Below, piece by piece: positions 30-56,612 of a stretch of 64,000 bases of DNA (position 1 is the stretch's first letter; every line of letters begins with the position of its first letter). The notes beneath the pieces were generated by a model. That model did no database searches, was not told where the DNA came from, and worked only from the letters and a program-made list of their open reading frames with translations. The stretch comes from a phage. Position numbers and translations under genes: made by a program. The stretch lies in sequence record PV419677.1. One strand, written 5' to 3'.

Positions 30-941
30 TTAAAGGCCAGCCAGAAGGTCGTCAAGACCATCATCGGAAGGCTCTGGAGCGCTTGGAGCAGTCGCAGTGC
101 GTTCAGACTTAGCAGGTTTGCTGGAAGTGAAGTCTTCCATATCTTTATCGAAATCGTCCAGGTCTGCGCCCAGTTTATCAGCTTGTGCGGCGGCTTTAGA
201 AGCAGCACCACCGAGAGCAGCCGTACCCATTACTTTAGAGAATTTCTTCTGATTCTCTTCAAAGGATTTAAACACCAGCAATTCATTCAGGTCAGACATT
301 TCGTCCCAAAGTTTTTTCTGGAATGCTTCATCATTGATACCAGCGATTTCAGACTGGTTCATGAATTTGGAATCATCGTAGTTTTTATAACCGGAAACCA
401 GTTTAGATTTCAGTACGAAGTTCGCACCTTCAAAAGGACAAGTTACATCAATAGCTGTTTCGCCCATGTCAACATCGACTTCAACCATCTGGTTAATTTT
501 ATCCATGATTTTCTTGCCGAAGCGATATTTGAATACTTGACCTTCGTTAGACGGAACAGCAGGGTCTTTAATGACCAGGATGTTAGCCCAGTAAGAAGTA
601 TTACGCTTCAGTTTACGATATTCGGATTCGTTTGTGTTGTACAGGTCATTCTTATTCATGTACGCACACACAGGACAGCTTTCATAGTCGCCGTGGGTAG
701 AAGTACAGTTTTCAATATACCATTGACCGCCATTTTTAAAGCCGTGGTTAACGAGCTTGATGAACGGAGATGGATTTTCTTCATTCTTGGAAGGCAGGAA
801 ACGAATAACCGCAGAGCCGACGCCATCAGTATCTTTCAGTTTCCATTCTTTTTTATCGTCAGAAGAGAAACCAGAACCACCTTTCAGAGCGTTAAGGGAA
901 GCAGCCAGGTCAGCAGGGTTACGACGTTTAAACATAGACAT
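30..941 (-). CDS. 32: single-stranded DNA-binding protein gp32
   Basis: 303 aa; matches recalled T4 gp32 (301 aa) along its length incl. acidic DDLDDLL C-terminus; synteny with 59/33/dsbA/rnh. Confidence 0.95.
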
Positions 942-999
942 ATGATTTTCCTTAGATTATTTGATTTTTAACAGTTGTTTTGATTACGTATTAATTATA

Positions 1000-1671
1000 T
1001 TACTTTTTATTTAAAGCGCATTTATCACGATGACGTTTTAAATGATTTATAGATGTTTCATATCCACATAAATCACAAATAGCTCTTGGTAATTTTTTAC
1101 CTTTAAACCCTTTGGGATGGATATTATCAGGGTTTGAGTAACGACGCTTAGCAGAATCACTAAGAGTTTTTATCACTTCATTACCTCTGATGTTATTTAT
1201 TTTATCATCTTTTTCATAAAAGCGATTTAGGCCTTCAGAAATTGATTTCTTATGCTCCATACTTTTTGGAACATCTTTTTGTGCTTCCGAAATACATTTA
1301 TTTGTATGTGCGGAATTTTTCATTCCATATCTTGGAGCACGTTCACCAGCACCACCGAATGCACCACGAGCCGTTGCTTTATTAAAGAATAGCGGGGATT
1401 TTGGTATATTATAATGGGCGTGGTACCACTCTTCCTCGTCCAAAACATCTTCGCAGACATCAAGTATTTTGATTGTCGGCTTTTCGAGTTGAATAGCTTC
1501 AAGAAAATCAGGTTGCTCACAGGAGGACCAATATTCTCTTCTTGACGTGTATTTCAAATCAATTATAACACCATTTTCAAAAGCACAATTATGCTTTGAC
1601 CCAATGTAAAAATAAGGAGGCGTTTTATTTTTCAGACGAGTTTCAAATGTAAACCAATACACAACATTCAA
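1000..1671 (-). CDS. GIY-YIG homing endonuclease, SegG-like (free-standing)
   Basis: 223 aa; N-terminal VVYWF...YFYIGSK resembles GIY-x10-YIG; located between 32 and 59 where T4 carries segG. Confidence 0.6.
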   Translation of the reverse strand: MNVVYWFTFETRLKNKTPPYFYIGSKHNCAFENGVIIDLKYTSRREYWSSCEQPDFLEAIQLEKPTIKILDVCEDVLDEEEWYHAHYNIPKSPLFFNKATARGAFGGAGERAPRYGMKNSAHTNKCISEAQKDVPKSMEHKKSISEGLNRFYEKDDKINNIRGNEVIKTLSDSAKRRYSNPDNIHPKGFKGKKLPRAICDLCGYETSINHLKRHRDKCALNKK

Positions 1672-47857: not shown

Positions 47858-48864
47858 TTAAAAATCAAACATATCAAAAAGAGATGCTTTTTTCTCGTAA
47901 TCAACCTTAGCTGCTTCAGAGAACCCTGTTAACGGTTTGACAAAAGTCTTCTGGAACAGTGTGTTGTAGTCCATCCACTGCAAGACTTGGTCACGGATTT
48001 CAATCGGGAGTTCAATCCCAGATGGCCATGCAATCACGGTTTCACCAAACGGGTTGCCGACTTTAAGAGGAAGTACATACACCTTTTCCCCTTCCATGAT
48101 TTGTGGAACAGTCTTCAGACCTTTAGTTGCACGCATATATGCAAGCACACCTTTGATATGAGCCGGGCACTTAAATCCAGGGAAACCACCCTCATTATAT
48201 TTCTGAATGTTGTTAACCGATGATACACCTGCGATGGTCATGTAGTTAAGCTCATTAAATTCCTTATTGAATTCCTTGAAGTATGTCTGCAGAGATTCTT
48301 CACCTTCTTGCAGCATGCGACGGATACATTCTTTCAGAGCTTTCTGACATGCTTTTGGTGTGCTCGACTTTTGAGTTTCCAGACCCATGATTTTCAGTTT
48401 CGGAACAGCATATCGTGTGCCTTCCATATCGTACACATTCAGAGCATAACGCTTCTTCGCTGTCCAGAATCCACCAACACCTTTAGAACCAAGCGGAGGA
48501 CATGCAATCGCTTCACGGTCCATAAACATAAGGTGCTGTTTGTTGTTCATGTATTCAGCCAGTTCACGGAAAGCTTTATCGATTGCCGGTTCCAGACGGT
48601 CTTTCGCAAACTTGTCCATGAAGTCAACCAGGTGGTTTGTATCGCGGAATTTCGATTCGCCACCAACCTTTTTAATCAGGTTATCGCACTGGATATAAAT
48701 GGAGTCAGTATCGCCATAGAATACATATGTTTCACCACTTGTACCACAAACACTATCAAAATATTCGTTAACTTTACGCTCAATCCACTGCAATGCAAGT
48801 TGTCCGAAAGATGTAATCGCGGTTGCATTTCGCAGGTCAAAGTAACGGAACCAGATATTTCCCA
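47858..48864 (-). CDS. 43: DNA polymerase gp43, subunit 43B exon 2 (motif C YGDTDS to C-terminus)
   Basis: frame begins GNIWFRYFDLRNATAI..., contains YGDTDS; collinear with T4 gp43 residues about 560-898. Confidence 0.8.
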
Positions 48865-49095
48865 CAATTTTGTTCAGTTGAAGTCGTTAATTTCAACCCG
48901 GAATTATATCCAGCTGCATGTTGCCATGCAGAGCAGACTATATCATCATCTTTCGATGCCATGCGCTTCCAGCCACTTGGCTGTACTCCTTTCGGATAGT
49001 CGTTGCACGTTCCTATAATAGGCTTCGCTCAGGATTGTCTCATAGAGATGTCCCCTGAATTCACATGGTTTAAAGTGCGCCGGAATACTTGGTTA
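48865..49095 (-). mobile_element. candidate ORF-less group I self-splicing intron in gene 43
   Basis: 231 nt between ...CYGA/L and GNIW...; P1 (exon GUGCGU : intron GCGCAC, U.G at splice site), P7 (GACUA / UAGUC within GAUAUAGUC), GNRA hairpin, terminal G; splicing restores frame. Confidence 0.55.
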
Positions 49096-49267
49096 ACGCA
49101 CCATAACAACTGTTGATAAGCAATTTGCGGTTAATCTGTGCAGTATTTGCCGCAATTTCTGCCATTTGCGAATTATGCAAATGACTTTCCAAATCCGCCC
49201 TTGATAATGTTTTTAAATATGCAATTTGCGAATCATCAAAATCTATATTATAATCAATATTCATCAT
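49096..49267 (-). CDS. 43: DNA polymerase gp43, subunit 43B exon 1 (motif B region)
   Basis: MMNIDYN...NRKLLINSCYGA matches T4 gp43 around KILINSLYGALG; ATG overlaps stop of the homing endonuclease gene. Confidence 0.7.
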
Positions 49268-50082
49268 TTATTCCTACAGTTATCAAAATGCCAACGTTTC
49301 ATGCCTGCTAATATACCTTCTTTTCCACAATGTGGACAAACTGCTTTAACCTCTTTTGCTTGTTTCCAATATTCCTTTCTGGCATCAGAAATAGCTTGAT
49401 TGTGTTCATCTGAATTTTTGTGTCCCAATCTGGTTTTAACGATATCTGGATTTTTAGCAACACGTTCTTTCATAAACTCAGATTTCGCTGCACGCATTTC
49501 TGGTGTCCAGGCATCGGAGCATTTTTGTTTGTGGTCGTCGGATATAGTTCCATTTTTCAGCACAGACTCATTGTTCTTATAATGTTCAATTAAACTTTGT
49601 GAACGTTTTTGACAAGTTTCTACCGAGTGTTTTGTTCCAGTATTTTTAATTGAGGCGATTTTAAAATTATCAATTGAAATTTTATTGTAATAATCTGGAT
49701 TTTGGGCCCGGGTATATTTGATACTATCGGAAACCTTTTTGGCAACTACTGGATTATGCATCGCATTTGGTAAATTTAAAGAATTGACATAATCCCACCC
49801 ACCTTTACCACCTGGGGTTAAATTATATGTGTCAGTACGTGTGATAAATTCATTATCAACTAATTTGGCTTCAAGTGCATATGCATCATCTTCGTTATCA
49901 AATTCAGCAATGATTGATTTGACCAGGTTATGCTTGCCATATTTTTCTTTCGCAGCTTTCACAATGGGACCCGAACCCAGATAATCATCCAACAAATTAT
50001 AAGATTCACATTTATGAACTCCAATGTAAATCTTATCGTTCACTAAATTTTTAATTTGATAAACAGTGTATACATTTTTCAT
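49264..50082 (-). CDS. GIY-YIG homing endonuclease inserted in gene 43
   Basis: 272 aa; VYTVYQIKNLVNDKIYIGV GIY-YIG motif, NLTPGGKGG, C-terminal zinc finger CPHCGKEGILAGMKRWHFDNC. Confidence 0.8.
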   Translation of the reverse strand: MKNVYTVYQIKNLVNDKIYIGVHKCESYNLLDDYLGSGPIVKAAKEKYGKHNLVKSIIAEFDNEDDAYALEAKLVDNEFITRTDTYNLTPGGKGGWDYVNSLNLPNAMHNPVVAKKVSDSIKYTRAQNPDYYNKISIDNFKIASIKNTGTKHSVETCQKRSQSLIEHYKNNESVLKNGTISDDHKQKCSDAWTPEMRAAKSEFMKERVAKNPDIVKTRLGHKNSDEHNQAISDARKEYWKQAKEVKAVCPHCGKEGILAGMKRWHFDNCRNK

Positions 50083-50094
50083 AATGTCTCCTTA

Positions 50095-50135
50095 ATTTAA
50101 AAATATTTTAGCGCGCTTCCTTGCGCTTGTACAAC
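50095..50135 (-). promoter_or_regulatory. promoter-like element for homing endonuclease gene
   Basis: minus strand GTTGTACA...TAAAAT then GGAGA Shine-Dalgarno inside 53-nt spacer between 43A stop and endonuclease ATG. Confidence 0.35.
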
Positions 50136-51659
50136 TTAAAGATGGTTTAAAAGGTCTTTAATCAATTCACTATTACGTTGTGCCGCCAACATCTTTTTCT
50201 TTTCGGTTTTTCGTTGATTAAAAACTTTCTCAACTTCTGTCGGAATAATACCTGCAACATCTTTAAAATACATCATGCCATTTGGAGCACAACTAAATGT
50301 ATCAGATGGACGGTCAGCAGTTCCTGCGATGTATTCATACATCGGCGCAGGAGCAAATGAACCGGCAATCGTTTCTGGACTGATGTTAATCTGTCGGATG
50401 ATGCTCGGATACAGAGATGTCAAGTCACAGCTCATAACGTATTTGTATGCGTTCGGAATCGGTTCCTTAACAAATGCACCAGGGAATGATTGACGAACAT
50501 GCGATTTGGTTTCCGGAATGACTTTGTTTTGAGTCTTCAGGCTGTTAAAGATAATCGCATCCCAAGTTTTGATTGGGCTGAATACAGACTGAATCTGCAT
50601 TTTTGCGTAATAACCCATTGACTGGCTAAGGTTAATAAACTGGCGCTTACGGTCAATCTGTACAACACGATAAACATCGATGATGTTATAAGAAATATAC
50701 CGTTGGTGATTTGATTCACGCAGTTTAGAAATCGGACCATCATACGGGAGTTTACCAACACCCAGCTCAGATTCCGCAACATAATCCAACGAATAAGACG
50801 GTTGGTTTGTGAAGCTGAACTTTTTATACAGGTCCAGATAATCCAGAACAGAGATACCCAGAATCTGAATGATTTCTTGTTCTTCACCAAAGCCGTTGTT
50901 AATTACTTTAACTTTTGTACGACGATGTGGGCTCAGACGTTTTGCTGTGGCTTCACCAAATACATTTTTAAGGCGGTTGTAGATATACGGAATATCAAAC
51001 TTCTCGATGTTCCAACCAGTTAACATAACCGGAGTTTTCTCGTTCCAGAATACCAAATACTGCTGGAGCATTTCTTCTTCTGAATCGAAAGCCATATAAA
51101 CAATTTTTTCCAGGATTTCTTCAGGGACTTCATCGCCGCCATCTTCTTGCAGCTTGGCAGCAATATCAATAGACCATTGCTCCACAGTGGCGTATGGTGA
51201 GCTCAAAAGGTCAAAGACATAGAATTTATCGTCTACCGAATCATAGTGCGTCAGGGCATCAATAGGGTGACGTGCTTCAGACGGCTCAGGGAACCCATCC
51301 GGAGATGTCACCTCGATATCGAAGTTAGCCACACGGATTTTACTTGAATCGTATTTGATTTCGTGTGGATAACGGTCGGACAAGTATGCGAGTTTAAAGT
51401 CATCCATACCCATAGCTTCGAGACCCATGTCATTCATTCGCTTCATCCACTGGGATGCATCACGCATGGAATCGAATTCTTTTTTCACACAACCTTTATT
51501 ATAGATGTCTGTATACTTTGCAGCCTGGTCTTCGCGAGCATGCATAAACAAGCATGGAGCATAAGGGATTTCACGAACACGTTCATGACCATTCTTGTCA
51601 ATGTATCGTTCAAGCAGATTGTCACCGATTTGTTCGATAGTTAAATAAAATTCTTGCAT
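50136..51659 (-). CDS. 43: DNA polymerase gp43, subunit 43A (exonuclease and palm motif A)
   Basis: 507 aa; collinear with T4 gp43 N-terminal about 510 residues incl. FDIEVT, SLYPSIIRQ; ends with stop before the motif B region. Confidence 0.9.
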   Translation of the reverse strand: MQEFYLTIEQIGDNLLERYIDKNGHERVREIPYAPCLFMHAREDQAAKYTDIYNKGCVKKEFDSMRDASQWMKRMNDMGLEAMGMDDFKLAYLSDRYPHEIKYDSSKIRVANFDIEVTSPDGFPEPSEARHPIDALTHYDSVDDKFYVFDLLSSPYATVEQWSIDIAAKLQEDGGDEVPEEILEKIVYMAFDSEEEMLQQYLVFWNEKTPVMLTGWNIEKFDIPYIYNRLKNVFGEATAKRLSPHRRTKVKVINNGFGEEQEIIQILGISVLDYLDLYKKFSFTNQPSYSLDYVAESELGVGKLPYDGPISKLRESNHQRYISYNIIDVYRVVQIDRKRQFINLSQSMGYYAKMQIQSVFSPIKTWDAIIFNSLKTQNKVIPETKSHVRQSFPGAFVKEPIPNAYKYVMSCDLTSLYPSIIRQINISPETIAGSFAPAPMYEYIAGTADRPSDTFSCAPNGMMYFKDVAGIIPTEVEKVFNQRKTEKKKMLAAQRNSELIKDLLNHL

Positions 51660-52910: not shown

Positions 52911-53893
52911 TTCATTTCCCCAGCCAGTTGAGCAAACAGATAAGTCAAGTGAACTTCGGTATTGGCCGCAATGCCATGGTACTGATTATTCTCACCTACA
53001 ATCTCATACATGCGGATGATACTTGCACCAGTCAGTTTGCCATACATTTCATCAGCCAGCTTTGCAATGAAGCTTGAATAATCATTTGCATGCTTAGGAG
53101 CCAGACCACGGAGAACTTTAAAGTTACGGTCCTTAAGGGCATCAATCACATCATCAATTGGCGTGCGATTGTTTGTCACGATACTCAGAATACCAGAATC
53201 GATAACACCCTTTGCAGAGTAACGGTCAAGCTCGTTAATTGTCTTACGCAGGTCCGGGAAGTTATGCTTAACCAGAGCAGCAACAACTTTCAGGTCTTCG
53301 ATTTCAACGCCTTCGTTTTTACATATCGCAACCGCACGATGAATCATCTCTTTCATCATAGTAGTCTGGTCAGCTGGAGTTGCTTCACCAAACTTAATTA
53401 CGCGACAACGAGACTGCAACGGAGTAATGATGCCATCGATATTGTTCGCGGTCATAATGATTGAACAGTTGCTCGAATAAGCTTCCATAAAGCTACGGAG
53501 GTGTCGTTGTGATTCTGCCAGACCTGCACGGTCGAACTCATCGATAACAATTACCTTACGGCGACCTTCGATTGATTTGGATGATGCAAAGCGAGTCAAT
53601 TCATTACGCACAAAGTCAATTCGGCAATCGGAGCCGTTAACAAACAGCATATCAGAATTCGTATCTGCGCACATAGCTTTTGCAACTGTTGTCTTACCAG
53701 TACCAGGGGAACTACTGACCAGAATCAAGTTAGGAATCAAACCTTTTTTAACAATCGCCTCTAATGTTTCTTTATCGTGAGCCGGGAGAATACACTCTGA
53801 TAATGTACCTGGGCGGTATTTTTGTTCCCACATGAAGTCGGATTCGTTGACTGTCAAACCGTTAATTACTGTTGCCATTATTATTTTCCTCAT
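52901..53893 (-). CDS. 44: clamp loader large subunit gp44 (AAA+)
   Basis: 330 aa (T4 319 aa); Walker A SPGTGKTT. Confidence 0.9.
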   Translation of the reverse strand: MRKIIMATVINGLTVNESDFMWEQKYRPGTLSECILPAHDKETLEAIVKKGLIPNLILVSSSPGTGKTTVAKAMCADTNSDMLFVNGSDCRIDFVRNELTRFASSKSIEGRRKVIVIDEFDRAGLAESQRHLRSFMEAYSSNCSIIMTANNIDGIITPLQSRCRVIKFGEATPADQTTMMKEMIHRAVAICKNEGVEIEDLKVVAALVKHNFPDLRKTINELDRYSAKGVIDSGILSIVTNNRTPIDDVIDALKDRNFKVLRGLAPKHANDYSSFIAKLADEMYGKLTGASIIRMYEIVGENNQYHGIAANTEVHLTYLFAQLAGEMKWL

Positions 53894-54440
53894 TAAATTT
53901 TTTAACTATTTTATTCAATTCATTGGCTGAATAATTATACCCATAGTTCCGCAAAAGCGTACTGAACTTACCGCGCTTTGGTTTATCCAGCTCTATCCAA
54001 ATTTTTAACAGTTCATCATAGTGATTCCAAACTTCAGAACGCTGCCATAACGAACAATTCAATTTATGTGTTTTACTAAATGTTCGAGATACACCAGTAC
54101 GTGATTCAGACATTTGTCTACGAGTTTCTTCTGTATGAAAATCAACTCCACCATTACCGCCTGGATGAACATTAACACATTTATTTCCATATTCAATAAG
54201 ACCTTTGGCAACAATCAAAGATTCATAGTGTTTAGCTTCTTTGAAAGTTTTTACTTCTTTAATAATTTTTGTATCGAATAACCAAAGCCCAGGAATTAAA
54301 TCATTTTCTTTTCGACAAGCTTTAATAAACGTTCCACTGCCGTGATATTCTTCACCGGTCAAACGATGTCTACCAAAATAATGATAAACATCGTTTGATG
54401 CAGTATTTGTTATTTTTGTATGATAACAAATGTATGACAT
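53862..54440 (-). CDS. putative GIY-YIG (Seg-like) homing endonuclease between 45 and 44
   Basis: 192 aa from ATG at 54440 (GGAGA Shine-Dalgarno); SYICYH...VYHYFG and VHPGGNGG resemble Seg-family motifs; overlaps gp44 start by 32 nt. Confidence 0.5.
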   Translation of the reverse strand: MSYICYHTKITNTASNDVYHYFGRHRLTGEEYHGSGTFIKACRKENDLIPGLWLFDTKIIKEVKTFKEAKHYESLIVAKGLIEYGNKCVNVHPGGNGGVDFHTEETRRQMSESRTGVSRTFSKTHKLNCSLWQRSEVWNHYDELLKIWIELDKPKRGKFSTLLRNYGYNYSANELNKIVKKFNEENNNGNSN

Positions 54441-54471
54441 TTTATTCTCCATGGGGCCGAAGCCCCATTTA

Positions 54472-55167
54472 TTAATCTTGGAATTCGTGGCTAGAGCCTT
54501 GTTCCATCGCAATCACATAGCTTGCTTGTGTGCCTTCAAACTTCGTAGCAAATTTATCATCTTTCGCCCAAAGCATAACACGGTAATCAGCCGGAATCAT
54601 TTTCATGTTCAGTTTGTTAATGATAAATTTAAACGCTGCATCGCCTTCGTAGTCGCCACATACCAGGGAATACAATGGACGTGCTAATTCTTTATCTTCG
54701 AGCTGGTTATAACCATGGATAACAATCTTACCGTCTTTGTTGGTGATTGCAAAGGTGTCCAGAGACAAACCACCAGCCACACGCAGAAGCTGCTGCAGGT
54801 CACTACCTTTCAGGTCGAAAATAACCTTAGCTACCGGGAAAGGAATCTTTTTAGCAGGGAACACGATAGTGCTCGGGTCTGCAGCTGGCCAGTGAATCGT
54901 TGAACGTTGGTCTTTGATAATGATGTTTGATGCGTCTTCAGCCAGAGATACTTCAGCTTGGTCAGTTACCAGGCCCAGGATACTTAAGAAGCCGTTCAGG
55001 TCATAAATCGCAGCTTCAAAGTCAATTGTATCATTGATTTCGGCTTCGCCATATGACGCTCCAGTTACGGAACGAGTCAGGATGGTATTACCTGGCTTAA
55101 GCATAATGCCAGAGTAAATGGAAGTAAAGTTTTTCAATACCGCGATTGTGTCCTTTGAGAATTTCAT
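54472..55167 (-). CDS. 45: sliding clamp gp45
   Basis: 231 aa (T4 228 aa); N-terminus MKFSKDTIAVLKNF...IYDLNGFL matches recalled gp45. Confidence 0.9.
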   Translation of the reverse strand: MKFSKDTIAVLKNFTSIYSGIMLKPGNTILTRSVTGASYGEAEINDTIDFEAAIYDLNGFLSILGLVTDQAEVSLAEDASNIIIKDQRSTIHWPAADPSTIVFPAKKIPFPVAKVIFDLKGSDLQQLLRVAGGLSLDTFAITNKDGKIVIHGYNQLEDKELARPLYSLVCGDYEGDAAFKFIINKLNMKMIPADYRVMLWAKDDKFATKFEGTQASYVIAMEQGSSHEFQD

Positions 55168-55895: not shown

Positions 55896-56612
55896 ATGAA
55901 TTATAACATCATTTACCAAAAGCTTATTAGCAGAGCATTGAATCGCAAATTAACCACATACTCTGAAAGCCATCACATTATACCCCGTTGTATGGGTGGG
56001 GCTGACGACGCTTCAAATCTTGTTGATTTAACTCCCGAGGAACATTTCGTTTGCCATCAACTGTTGGTCAAAATGCATCCAAATAACGCTTCTTTGGTCT
56101 ATGCCGCGCGCATGATGACAGTTTCTGCACCAAATGCCGACAGAAGCAAAAATAAATTATTTGGATGGCTTCGTCGTAAAAACTTGGAAGCTCAACAAAA
56201 TAAAATTTTCTCCGATGAAACCAGAAAGAAAATGTCAGAATCCGCCAAATTAAAACCGAGAGTCGAATGTCCACACTGTGGAAAAACCGGTCTCGCTGGC
56301 AATATGAATCGTTGGCATTTTGATAACTGTTCCAAAGGTCCAAACAAGGTTGTTCATACTATTCCGGAAAAGCAAAAGCAAAAAATTTCAGTAGGTTTAA
56401 AACAAGCTAAACATGAAATTTTAAATTGTGAATTTTGCGGGCTTGAAGGTAAAAAGTGTGTTATATCCACTCACCGACAATTCTGCAAATCCAATCCAAA
56501 CCGGAAGAAAAAGGTGGACCCCAAAATTCAGTGTCCACACTGTAATGTAGTCAGTACGCCAGCTAATATGAAACGTTGGCATTTTGATAACTGCAAAATG
56601 AAGCCTCAATAA
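55896..56612 (+). CDS. HNH homing endonuclease with two C-terminal zinc fingers (mob-like)
   Basis: 238 aa from ATG at 55896; HNH core SHHIIPRCMGG...NLVDLTPEEHFVCH; two CPHCG...RWHFDNC fingers; plus strand amid minus-strand genes. Confidence 0.75.
   Translation: MNYNIIYQKLISRALNRKLTTYSESHHIIPRCMGGADDASNLVDLTPEEHFVCHQLLVKMHPNNASLVYAARMMTVSAPNADRSKNKLFGWLRRKNLEAQQNKIFSDETRKKMSESAKLKPRVECPHCGKTGLAGNMNRWHFDNCSKGPNKVVHTIPEKQKQKISVGLKQAKHEILNCEFCGLEGKKCVISTHRQFCKSNPNRKKKVDPKIQCPHCNVVSTPANMKRWHFDNCKMKPQ

Follow-up and report, generated by a model that had tools for sequence, protein, structure and literature searches.

How did homing endonucleases built on unrelated nuclease domains come to carry the same short peptide? 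The question is raised by a 64,000-nucleotide stretch of DNA from a T4-like phage (record PV419677.1, hereafter the window), in which the initial annotation had placed a cysteine- and histidine-containing finger peptide twice in an HNH enzyme and once at the C-terminus of a GIY-YIG enzyme. All three were located (F1, F3 and aa 249-269, respectively), and although the two HNH fingers it had counted are real, a diverged third, F2, had been overlooked, the tail of the HNH enzyme being made up of three fingers; a fifth finger ends a SegG-like enzyme elsewhere in the window. The features concerned are these:

55896-56612, plus strand: HNH homing endonuclease gene, Mob type, free-standing, 238 aa (from PHROG 655 and MobB homology)
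56193-56330, plus strand: HNH module 1, a NUMOD3-like helix (aa 107-119) plus F1 (from the motif and alignment to the GIY-YIG module)
56268-56330, plus strand: HNH finger F1, CPHCGKTGLAGNMNRWHFDNC, aa 125-145, C-x2-C-x12-H-x3-C
56427-56486, plus strand: HNH finger F2, CEFCGLEGKKCVISTHRQFC, aa 178-197, a diverged x11 variant followed by an NPNR linker
56532-56594, plus strand: HNH finger F3, CPHCNVVSTPANMKRWHFDNC, aa 213-233, x12, followed by KMKPQ (5 residues) and the stop codon
49264-50082, minus strand: GIY-YIG homing endonuclease gene, free-standing, 272 aa (from Pfam GIY-YIG and PHROG 314)
49276-49407, minus strand: GIY-YIG module, a NUMOD3-like segment (aa 226-245) plus the C-terminal finger (from alignment to HNH module 1)
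49276-49338, minus strand: GIY-YIG finger CPHCGKEGILAGMKRWHFDNC, aa 249-269, x12, with the stop codon 3 residues on
1000-1671, minus strand: SegG-position homing endonuclease gene, 223 aa, flanked by genes 32 and 59 (from PHROG 7504 and SegG homology)
1018-1077, minus strand: fifth finger, CDLCGYETSINHLKRHRDKC, of x11 type, ending the SegG-like ORF

The HNH gene is flanked by genes 45.2 and 46, both of which lie on the other strand. Its product matched PHROG 655 ('homing endonuclease') at E 7.8e-67 and resembles T4 Mob proteins in its N-terminal 118 aa, with 44% identity to MobB (E 1e-29) and 35% to MobC; the Pfam HNH score of 16.8 bits lies under the 21.4 cut-off, and the motif HHIIPRCMGG...NLV...EEH is present. 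Orthologues of 238 aa occupy the same locus in phages FB, Bp7, KIT01, fFiEco06 and G2285, and many close relatives lack the gene: of 51 phage records that matched, only 7 carry most of the query, and among the records listed, those of low coverage that are at least 98% identical (e.g., H24-H30) match over no more than the initial ~247 nt of flank. In T4 the 45.2/46 locus is a 55-nt gap between the genes. This is thus a free-standing gene between conserved genes, polymorphic for presence or absence among close relatives. The SegG-like protein matched PHROG 7504 at E 1.4e-48, is 53% identical to T4 SegG over its N-terminal 113 aa (E 2e-41), and its finger aligned to F2 of the HNH enzyme (E 0.004).

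The GIY-YIG gene interrupts gene 43, for DNA polymerase, which is thereby split into 43A and 43B. The GIY-YIG product scored 23.0 bits against Pfam GIY-YIG (PF01541, cut-off 22.6) and matched PHROG 314 at E 2.7e-47; it is 63% identical to the ORF at the same position in G2285, its nuclease domain is 44% identical to that of the gene 43 endonuclease of TH15, and over aa 4-272 it is 39.5-45.8% identical to helc25, phiAS4 and Aes508 proteins (these three matches are annotated 'split DNA polymerase'). The window shares a split gene 43 with G2285, TH15 and Aeromonas phage 25, and in MN01 the gene is uninterrupted, as was checked by translation; in other listed relatives two matched pieces cover ~513 nt of the record versus 1,601 nt of query, which fits the absence of an insertion. 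The endonuclease-less allele of MN01 was recorded as the region around KLLINSCYGALGN. By full-length alignment (39.5% identity) the window enzyme is a homologue of helc25 of Aeromonas phage 25, whose split gene 43, homing endonuclease and intron 25.g43B are described by Petrov et al. (2006/2010, cited in PMC2993671). The two systems have in common 43A, a GIY-YIG endonuclease ending CPHC...KRWHFDxC, and a 43B with an ORF-less group I intron; they differ in that the one belongs to an Aeromonas Tulanevirus and the other to an E. coli Gaprivervirus-like phage. Among E. coli phages this form of gene 43, with finger-type endonuclease and intron, was otherwise seen only in G2285, and TH15 has a gene 43 endonuclease without the finger and a gene 43 without the intron. 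The link between finger-type endonuclease and intron rests on three genomes, since no close orthologue of the enzyme was found in IMG/VR (best 35%).

What is the shared peptide? By its sequence it is an I-TevIII-type C2HC zinc finger, CX2CX12-13HX3C, and is small, ~21-25 aa; the initial annotation did not name it as that known finger. F1, F3 and the GIY-YIG finger have x12 ligand spacing, whereas F2 and the SegG-like finger have x11, one residue under the published I-TevIII range; among 661 homologue fingers 538 have x12, 80 x13 and 35 x11. F2 and F3 together are 39.7% identical to I-TevIII of RB3 and T4 (tblastn, E 4e-5 to 1e-4), and the F2+F3 block is 35% identical to I-TevIII over 93 columns (BLASTP, E 4e-11), F2 aligning with I-TevIII ZF1, CDFCGHIGKGPGFYLKHNDRCKLNPNR, and F3 with ZF2, CPYCDKKDLSPSTYKRWHGDNC. 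The same region (HNH aa 163-236) was matched by PHROGs 12324 (E 2.5e-10) and 27406 (E 6.8e-13), which from their lengths (269 and 97 aa) and the label 'intron-like DNA endonuclease' we take to be I-TevIII families. Common to F2+F3 and ZF1+ZF2 are the CX2CX11-13HX3C ligands, the NPNR linker and the KRWHxDNCK tail, and in both cases the fingers are C-terminal in an HNH homing endonuclease. The differences are that I-TevIII has an HNH_3-type nuclease domain whereas the window HNH enzyme is of Mob type, that it is encoded in an intron of RB3 nrdB and has two fingers whereas the window genes are free-standing with three or one, and that one window carrier is a GIY-YIG enzyme. Searches of Pfam, NCBIfam and PDB sequences assigned the finger to no particular family or structure, returning only sub-threshold, generic zinc-ribbon matches, and the strings RWHFDNC and CPHCGK were not found in the literature searched.

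For I-TevIII there are experiments to lean on. A PAR/MMTS assay gave about one zinc per finger (Robbins et al. 2007, PMC1865063), the fingers lie within the DNA-binding domain, and Cys-to-Ala finger mutants lost both DNA binding and cleavage (PMC1865063). Through homology these experiments support DNA binding by the window fingers, each of which is predicted to hold one zinc by Cys, Cys, His and Cys. The AF2 model of HNH module 1 has a helix at 107-119, strands at 122-124 and 131-133 and a helix at 134-144 (pLDDT ~88-92), and F2 was likewise predicted to be beta-beta-alpha. Each finger would therefore be a beta-hairpin with a CPHC zinc knuckle, then a short helix bearing (M)xRW-H-FDN-C, and a short basic NUMOD3-like helix is predicted usually to precede it, the two together forming one 'bead'. 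The window helices are NUMOD3-like yet below threshold, as no window protein reached the NUMOD3 (PF07460) gathering score of 20.4 bits (HNH enzyme, 11.9; gene 43 GIY-YIG enzyme, 14.5 at aa 220-236; a Seg-like ORF at 53862-54512, 16.3), whereas many homologues passed it (NUMOD3 in 38-50 of those scanned).

The spacing C-x2-C-x12-H-x3- and the predicted fold are those of classical C2H2 fingers, and a UBZ domain (the C2HC UBZ4 type, of RAD18) superposes at 1.1 A; UBZ domains bind ubiquitin. The finger profile also matched a 38-repeat C2H2-like protein, and Pfam zf-C2H2 was found in 4 of the 133 homologues scanned. The last ligand of the window finger is, however, Cys, and its core is M13, W16 and F18 versus the Phe and Leu of C2H2, homology being unproven; Pfam gave no match to classical C2H2 (PF00096) in the window proteins, and the likeness is limited to fold and spacing. 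Helix positions +3 and +6, which contact bases in classical C2H2 fingers, are here M and W and nearly invariant, and the affinity of the finger for DNA may therefore be generic rather than sequence-specific. I-TevIII footprints suggest minor-groove contacts and low affinity, unlike those of classical fingers.

The initial annotation had also proposed a search for the module in other Seg/Mob endonucleases. One search returned 726 finger homologues, and at E<=1e-3 there were at least 7,385 cluster representatives (clusters at 50% identity), with 1 to 8 fingers per homologue; the thousands of homologues form a continuous family with a common 12-residue consensus. Among the best 133 of the 7,385, Pfam identified GIY-YIG in 21, SegE_GIY-YIG in 19, HNH in 9, HNH_3 in 6, HNH_5 in 5 and NUMOD3 in 38, with comparable counts in a further scan of homologues. 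When the N-termini of 213 finger proteins were clustered, 127 were of GIY-YIG type and 68 of HNH type (clustering used 70 aa, as single linkage on 120 aa merged everything via NUMOD3-like repeats). The finger is thus joined to at least four nuclease-domain families: GIY-YIG, SegE-type, Mob-type HNH and HNH_3. For 51 of 144 GIY-linked modules the nearest neighbour was HNH-linked, at identities reaching 74% over 35 aa, and in the window itself the GIY-YIG module and HNH module 1 are 48% identical over 46 aa (E 4e-11).

The converse was also seen, each of the three window finger enzymes having relatives with a related nuclease domain and an unrelated C-terminus: T4 MobB and MobC for the HNH enzyme, T4 SegG for the SegG-like enzyme and the gene 43 endonuclease of TH15 for the GIY-YIG enzyme. 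The T4 enzymes are homologous to the window enzymes in their nuclease domains (44%, 35% and 53% for MobB, MobC and SegG), the locus of SegG matches that of the SegG-like gene, and the T4 Mob and SegG genes are all free-standing and intergenic; their C-terminal halves, in contrast, are unrelated and lack the finger. The finger was absent from the T4 set searched (MobA, MobB, MobC, SegA, SegF, SegG and I-TevII, with SegB-E, MobD/E and I-TevI outside it). Such shared nuclease domains with unrelated C-termini in T4 MobB, SegG and the TH15 enzyme make module shuffling among these endonucleases, family-wide, a well-supported reading of the sequences.

There are precedents for such tails. Sitbon and Pietrokovski reportedly described, in 2003, small DNA-binding modules common to homing endonuclease families, LAGLIDADG included. 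As in NUMOD tails, the window modules are common to GIY-YIG and HNH enzymes in varying numbers, and the fingers are interleaved with NUMOD3-like helices; what sets the window finger apart is that neither Pfam nor NCBIfam has a model for it. To our knowledge, this C2HC finger is not among NUMOD1-4. Tails of NUMOD modules arranged as 'beads on a string' are a known principle (PMC2988022; the study of Sitbon and Pietrokovski is ref. 31 of PMC1564403).

We therefore consider it very probable that the repeated peptide represents I-TevIII-type finger beads in DNA-binding tails, shared by repeated recombination of beads and nuclease domains; the comparative evidence shows that, in these selfish genes, the two kinds of part have recombined many times, and that the module is shared for this reason. 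One bead would terminate the GIY-YIG endonuclease of the split gene 43, three would make up the tail of the Mob-type HNH endonuclease next to gene 46 and one would terminate the SegG-like enzyme, the beads building an extended 'beads-on-a-string' DNA-binding tail. From the homology to I-TevIII, this tail would hold the enzyme on target DNA near its own insertion locus while the nuclease domain, at the N-terminus, cuts some way off. In homing generally, the cut genome is then repaired from the one that carries the endonuclease and so receives the gene.

A wider reading, rather unlikely in our estimation, joins these observations into a phage family of beta-beta-alpha fingers, very large and uncurated, that would be the counterpart, in viruses of prokaryotes, of C2H2 arrays, reading DNA modularly and being retargeted. 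Each helix-plus-finger bead would read a few base pairs via its hypervariable positions (-2 to +2 and +4 of the helix), where the variable positions do gather, and the invariant coding blocks and linkers would be built-in recombination joints permitting quick retargeting by gain, loss or swap of beads. The finger-type tail of the gene 43 endonuclease would, in addition, have been acquired along with the ORF-less, target-protecting intron (collaborative homing).

It is quite improbable that the fingers are instead mainly structural, i.e., dimerisation elements or a nuclease-positioning 'ruler' like the I-TevI Cys4 finger, rather than readers of DNA. The dimer interface of I-TevIII does lie in the C-terminal ~75 aa that hold its fingers, and the I-TevI finger, which likewise belongs to the tail of a GIY-YIG homing endonuclease from a T-even phage, is a linker organiser and distance determinant dispensable for DNA binding (PMC1865063). 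The near-invariance among homologue fingers of the helix-face residues M, R, W, F, D and N would also suit a structural role. The I-TevI finger, however, has four Cys ligands, and no sequence similarity between it and the window finger was detected. Moreover, the I-TevIII finger mutants that no longer bound DNA were still dimers (~70-73 kDa), the variable helix positions fit a reading surface, and the number of fingers, 1 to 8, is as in DNA-binding arrays.

If the preferred reading, old and repeated recombination of beads and nuclease domains, is right, there is still an exact DNA repeat to explain. The initial annotation's 20-nt core in all three fingers was borne out, as CGTTGGCATTTTGATAACTG occurs exactly three times in the window, and still only three times with up to 3 mismatches allowed:

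56310-56329, plus strand: 20-nt identical core, copy 1, exact match, encoding RWHFDN and the TG of Cys
56574-56593, plus strand: copy 2, repeating copy 1 directly and in frame, 264 nt (88 codons) downstream
49277-49296, minus strand: copy 3, inverted relative to both HNH copies, ~7 kb off

Three matches were obtained in 0 of 100 shuffles (chance expectation 0.01). All copies code for RWHFDNC, the end of a C-x2-C-x12-H-x3-C finger, and alignment of the three finger-coding segments, which the initial annotation had likewise suggested, gave 20-26 nt of identity, the longer being the 26 nt shared by F3 and the GIY-YIG finger, ATGAAACGTTGGCATTTTGATAACTG; DNA likeness was limited to the 63-nt finger, with unrelated flanks. 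With the conserved peptide taken as given and codons drawn at the window's usage, the probability that independent encodings agree across all 20 nt is ~8e-4 for three and ~0.02 for two, and in IMG/VR the exact 20-mer was used at only 3 of 121 RWHFDNC-coding sites; the identity is therefore somewhat above what peptide conservation and codon bias would give. A conserved DNA signal, e.g., a target site, was also considered and rejected, because other genomes encode the same peptide by at least 50 different 20-mers.

The initial annotation had taken the repeat to indicate exchange of the module between unrelated nucleases. That the module is homologous and shared stands; that it passed recently or directly between these two genes, or that they converted one another with the 20-26 nt as the conversion tract, we regard as very doubtful, even with the P-value of the three-way identity, the rarity of the 20-mer elsewhere and the 26 nt common to F3 and the GIY-YIG finger in its favour. 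The identity ends at the conserved block, finger interiors and flanks differ, and the codons used are mostly the commonest. The nearest relatives of each window finger are in other genomes, the GIY-YIG finger being closer to some of these (60%) than to F1 (~54%, by hand count), and the finger was already present in helc25. In G2285 the HNH fingers have the window 20-mer and the GIY-YIG finger is off by one synonymous base (CAC). The unrelated flanks, the relatives elsewhere and the helc25 finger argue that, as far as sequences tell, the sharing is old and family-wide, not a recent swap.

Within HNH genes the picture is somewhat different. F1 and F3 share their H/F/D/N codons inside each of the window, G2285, FB and Bp7, with choices that vary between phages, which would also suit recent conversion; no such co-variation was seen in Klebsiella-type orthologues, which counts against it. 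Codon identity was 0.74 within genes versus 0.52 between, a hint only, being confounded by common genome composition. From nt 1 to 435 the HNH genes of FB and Bp7 are ~97% identical, but past nt 461 only ~55%, which places a mosaic breakpoint interval (within 26 nt) just 3' of F1. We tentatively infer that the conserved coding blocks (TGTCCNCAYTG... and ...CGTTGGCAYTTYGAYAAYTG) and adjoining linkers are probably occasional joints for recombination or gene conversion, a role that would explain the exact 20-nt identity; the 20-mer may itself act as recombination homology, as the initial annotation proposed. At 20-26 nt the shared stretch is very short, and no rearranged genome was seen; the gene-conversion idea draws on few lineages.

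Chance or convergence, i.e., independent inventions of the motif or a coincidental 20-mer, is effectively refuted, for although short Cys/His motifs easily arise and the Pfam matches were weak, generic zinc ribbons, the shuffles, a pairwise alignment that covers non-ligand residues and the upstream helix, and the continuity of a family with a 12-residue consensus all speak against it.

Repeated recombination of beads and nuclease domains leaves the current understanding of homing endonucleases unchanged; this is a clear yet ordinary case of the swapping of a DNA-binding part. Its value is that a single genome joins the same finger to three nuclease domains (Mob-type HNH, helc25-type GIY-YIG and SegG-type), each of which has a relative with another tail, an internally controlled example of such assembly, and that a finger whose experimental characterisation is confined to I-TevIII ranks among the DNA-binding beads most often carried by phage homing endonucleases. 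If the beads do read DNA modularly, they may interest nuclease engineers. A curated model would improve annotation; several such genes are currently labelled 'hypothetical protein', 'RPC12/RpoP' or 'topoisomerase Zn-finger'.

Three exact copies of the 20-mer CGTTGGCATTTTGATAACTG lie in the window, at 49277-49296 (-), 56310-56329 (+) and 56574-56593 (+), and the re-inspection, which gave exactly these three, confirmed the 20-nt core that the initial annotation had described as common to an HNH and a GIY-YIG homing endonuclease. No further site was found in the 64-kb window with up to three mismatches permitted, and shuffled sequence had a mean of 0.01 matches, with three copies reached in 0 of 100 shuffles. 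Translation of both ORFs likewise bore out the finger peptide, twice in the HNH enzyme and once in the GIY-YIG enzyme, although that count had missed a diverged HNH finger, F2, and the finger of a third endonuclease gene. The finger-bearing segments are:

F1: aa 125-145 of the HNH ORF 55896-56612 (+), 238 aa; translation CPHCGKTGLAGNMNRWHFDNC
F2: aa 178-197 of the HNH ORF, diverged, between F1 and F3; CEFCGLEGKKCVISTHRQFC
F3: aa 213-233 of the HNH ORF; translation CPHCNVVSTPANMKRWHFDNC
GIY-YIG finger: C-terminal end of ORF 49264-50082 (-), 272 aa; translation CPHCGKEGILAGMKRWHFDNC-RNK
SegG-like endonuclease gene, 1000-1671 (-): similar C-terminal finger, CCHC, at 1018-1077; CDLCGYETSINHLKRHRDKC

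At the DNA level the likeness is confined to 63 nt, mainly two blocks, TGTCCACAYTGTGG and (ATGAAA)CGTTGGCATTTTGATAACTG, and the flanks of the finger-coding segments do not align.

Judged by its sequence, the shared module is the C2HC zinc finger of I-TevIII, the HNH endonuclease of the RB3 nrdB intron. Its ligand spacing, C-x2-C-x12-H-x3-C, is that of the CX2CX12-13HX3C motif defined by Robbins et al. 2007 (PMC1865063) in I-TevIII, where each finger holds about one zinc and double Cys-to-Ala mutants lost half or all of the zinc, together with DNA binding and cleavage. In tblastn, F2+F3 matched RB3 and T4 I-TevIII (39.7% identity, E 4e-5 and 1e-4); against aa 180-266 of the RB3 protein the E-value was 4e-11, with the NPNR linker and the KRWHxDNCK tail included. 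The same region matched PHROGs 12324 and 27406 (E 2.5e-10 and 6.8e-13), taken to be the I-TevIII families on the grounds of profile length and description. Pfam and NCBIfam had no model for the finger, giving generic zinc-ribbon matches that were all sub-threshold, and the sequence search found no solved structure for it. A logo of 516 fingers read (V/I)xCPHCGKxGxxxNMKRWHFDNCK, with variable positions 7, 9-12 and 14; in C2H2 numbering, 9-12 and 14 are helix positions -2 to +2 and +4, position 7 precedes the helix, and M(+3), W(+6) and F hardly vary. The finger profile also matched a 3179-aa protein (P0132) in which CPLCGTxFYxASNMRRHFNQVH, a finger of the C2H2 type, is repeated 38 times, and this match underlines the likeness of the C2HC finger to classical fingers.

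The module is widespread, and its helix+finger units do not group according to the nuclease family that carries them. Identity is 48% (E 4e-11) between the GIY-YIG tail (aa 226-269) and the helix+F1 of the HNH enzyme (aa 100-145). A search for homologues of the HNH tail gave 726 proteins. A profile built from the window's three modules matched 7,385 cluster representatives at E<=1e-3, of which 672 also passed E<=1e-10; single proteins have as many as eight fingers. Pfam domains among the best 133 of these matches were GIY-YIG (21), SegE_GIY-YIG (19), HNH (9), HNH_3 (6), HNH_5 (5) and NUMOD3 (38); a second scan of finger homologues gave a similar picture. Clustering by N-terminus placed 127 carriers as GIY-YIG-type and 68 as HNH-type, and for 51 of 144 GIY-linked units, in a sample biased by the query, the nearest neighbour was HNH-linked (<=74% identity over 35 aa). 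The window supplies clean controls of its own, since each of its finger-bearing nucleases has a relative in which the same nuclease domain is joined to another tail:

HNH, 55896-56612: T4 MobB, 44% identity (E 1e-29), and T4 MobC, 35%
SegG orthologue, 1000-1671 (-), between genes 32 and 59: T4 SegG, same locus, without finger and with a differing C-terminal half; 53% over the N-terminal 113 aa (E 2e-41)
Gene-43 GIY-YIG: homing endonuclease gene (HEG) of phage TH15, same site, unrelated tail; 44%

Together with the I-TevIII fingers, which sit on an HNH_3 domain, this is the pattern that module shuffling predicts.

The third pair belongs to DNA polymerase gene 43 (47858-51659, -), which the GIY-YIG gene splits:

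50136-51659 (-): 43A
49267 (start) down to 47858 (-): 43B, with an ATGA overlap with the GIY-YIG stop
48914-49127: ORF-less group I intron in 43B (Rfam RF00028, 81.4 bits), by eye about 48865-49095

The intron interrupts the conserved polymerase motif KLLINSxYGAL|GN. Coliphage G2285 has the same architecture, as does Aeromonas phage 25, for which PMC2993671, citing Petrov et al., gives 43A / helc25 / 43B with intron 25.g43B; gene 43 is uninterrupted in most relatives. In 3 of 3 genomes the finger-type HEG is accompanied by the intron, a co-occurrence that suggests collaborative homing. In TH15, gene 43 is split at the same place by another GIY-YIG gene (524-1222, -), whose product has an unrelated, finger-less C-terminal half; the TH15 43B is intron-free. 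The DNA-binding domain appears to have been swapped in nature at this one locus.

The initial annotation had proposed module exchange between unrelated nuclease families, and this holds for a shared, shuffled module in general but not for a recent direct swap between these two genes, of which comparison of flanks, nearest relatives and full-length homology gave no sign. The closest relatives of each window finger are in other genomes, and the gene-43 enzyme, finger included, is homologous end to end with helc25 and its counterparts in phiAS4 and Aes508 (39.5-45.8% identity). IMG/VR contigs code for RWHFDNC at no fewer than 121 sites and use over 50 different 20-mers to do so, the window 20-mer being used at 3 of the 121 among the matches listed. 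Under window codon usage its probability is 0.05 for one copy, and that of independent copies agreeing over the 20-mer is 0.023 for two and 8e-4 for three; there is therefore, in part, a modest excess of DNA identity beyond conserved protein and codon bias. In orthologous HNH genes the His/Phe/Asp/Asn codons are alike in F1 and F3 inside each phage and differ among phages (CAT TTT GAT AAC in the window and G2285, CAT TTT GAT AAT in FB, CAT TTC GAT AAC in Bp7/KIT01), a hint that F1 and F3 evolve in concert; this sharing was not found in the two Klebsiella-type orthologues. Intragenic codon identity was in overall excess (0.74 vs 0.52), a comparison confounded by genome composition.

The best evidence on recombination is a naturally occurring mosaic: between FB (839-1555) and Bp7 (1239-1955) the HNH gene is ~97% identical over nt 1-435 and ~55% from nt 461, and in its 3' part the FB gene instead resembles those of the window and G2285. 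The junction falls within nt 435-461, an interval that starts directly after the F1 block (nt 415-434), and bead boundaries (a bead being one helix+finger unit) thus probably serve as recombination joints. The 20-mer itself may have the recombination role that the initial annotation put forward; efficient homologous recombination in T4 requires roughly 50 bp, so that 20-26 nt would allow only rare events. The products predicted for such events are an in-frame 264-nt deletion (F1 x F3) and a 7-kb inversion (GIY-YIG finger x HNH finger); related genomes showed neither.

That homing endonucleases share DNA-binding modules is a long-established principle (NUMOD modules, beads-on-a-string; PMC1564403, PMC2988022). 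The finger itself is already characterised in I-TevIII, and the carrier enzymes have database relatives; mildly new are the scale of the uncurated finger family and the three-way illustration of shuffling inside one genome.

That genome belongs to a phage of the Tevenvirinae with Gaprivervirus MN01, P8 and P479 as near relatives. Its HNH gene, inserted between 45.2 and 46, is optional: few relatives have it, and it occupies the same locus in Dhakavirus, Tequatrovirus and Mosigvirus phages. In Bp7, gene 46 beside the HNH gene is annotated as two pieces (2138-2320 and 2400 onward, within 2138-2693), which suggests damage or a frameshift next to the endonuclease gene. A further Seg-like ORF, 53862-54512 (-), lies between genes 44 and 45 and overlaps both (PHROG 314, E 5e-17); its NUMOD3 match is sub-threshold (16.3 bits), it has no finger, and its start is likely at MENKMSY, about 54452. 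With this ORF added, the window therefore has at least four homing-endonuclease genes. Elsewhere, one IMG/VR contig (L229) has four successive Rfam group I intron matches (73, 53, 60 and 51 bits) within 1.4 kb at 68-1428 (+), immediately upstream of a GIY-YIG gene, and in four other compared sequences (L212, L218, L220, L227) finger-bearing GIY-YIG genes lie within dense tRNA gene clusters, a location like that of T4 segB.
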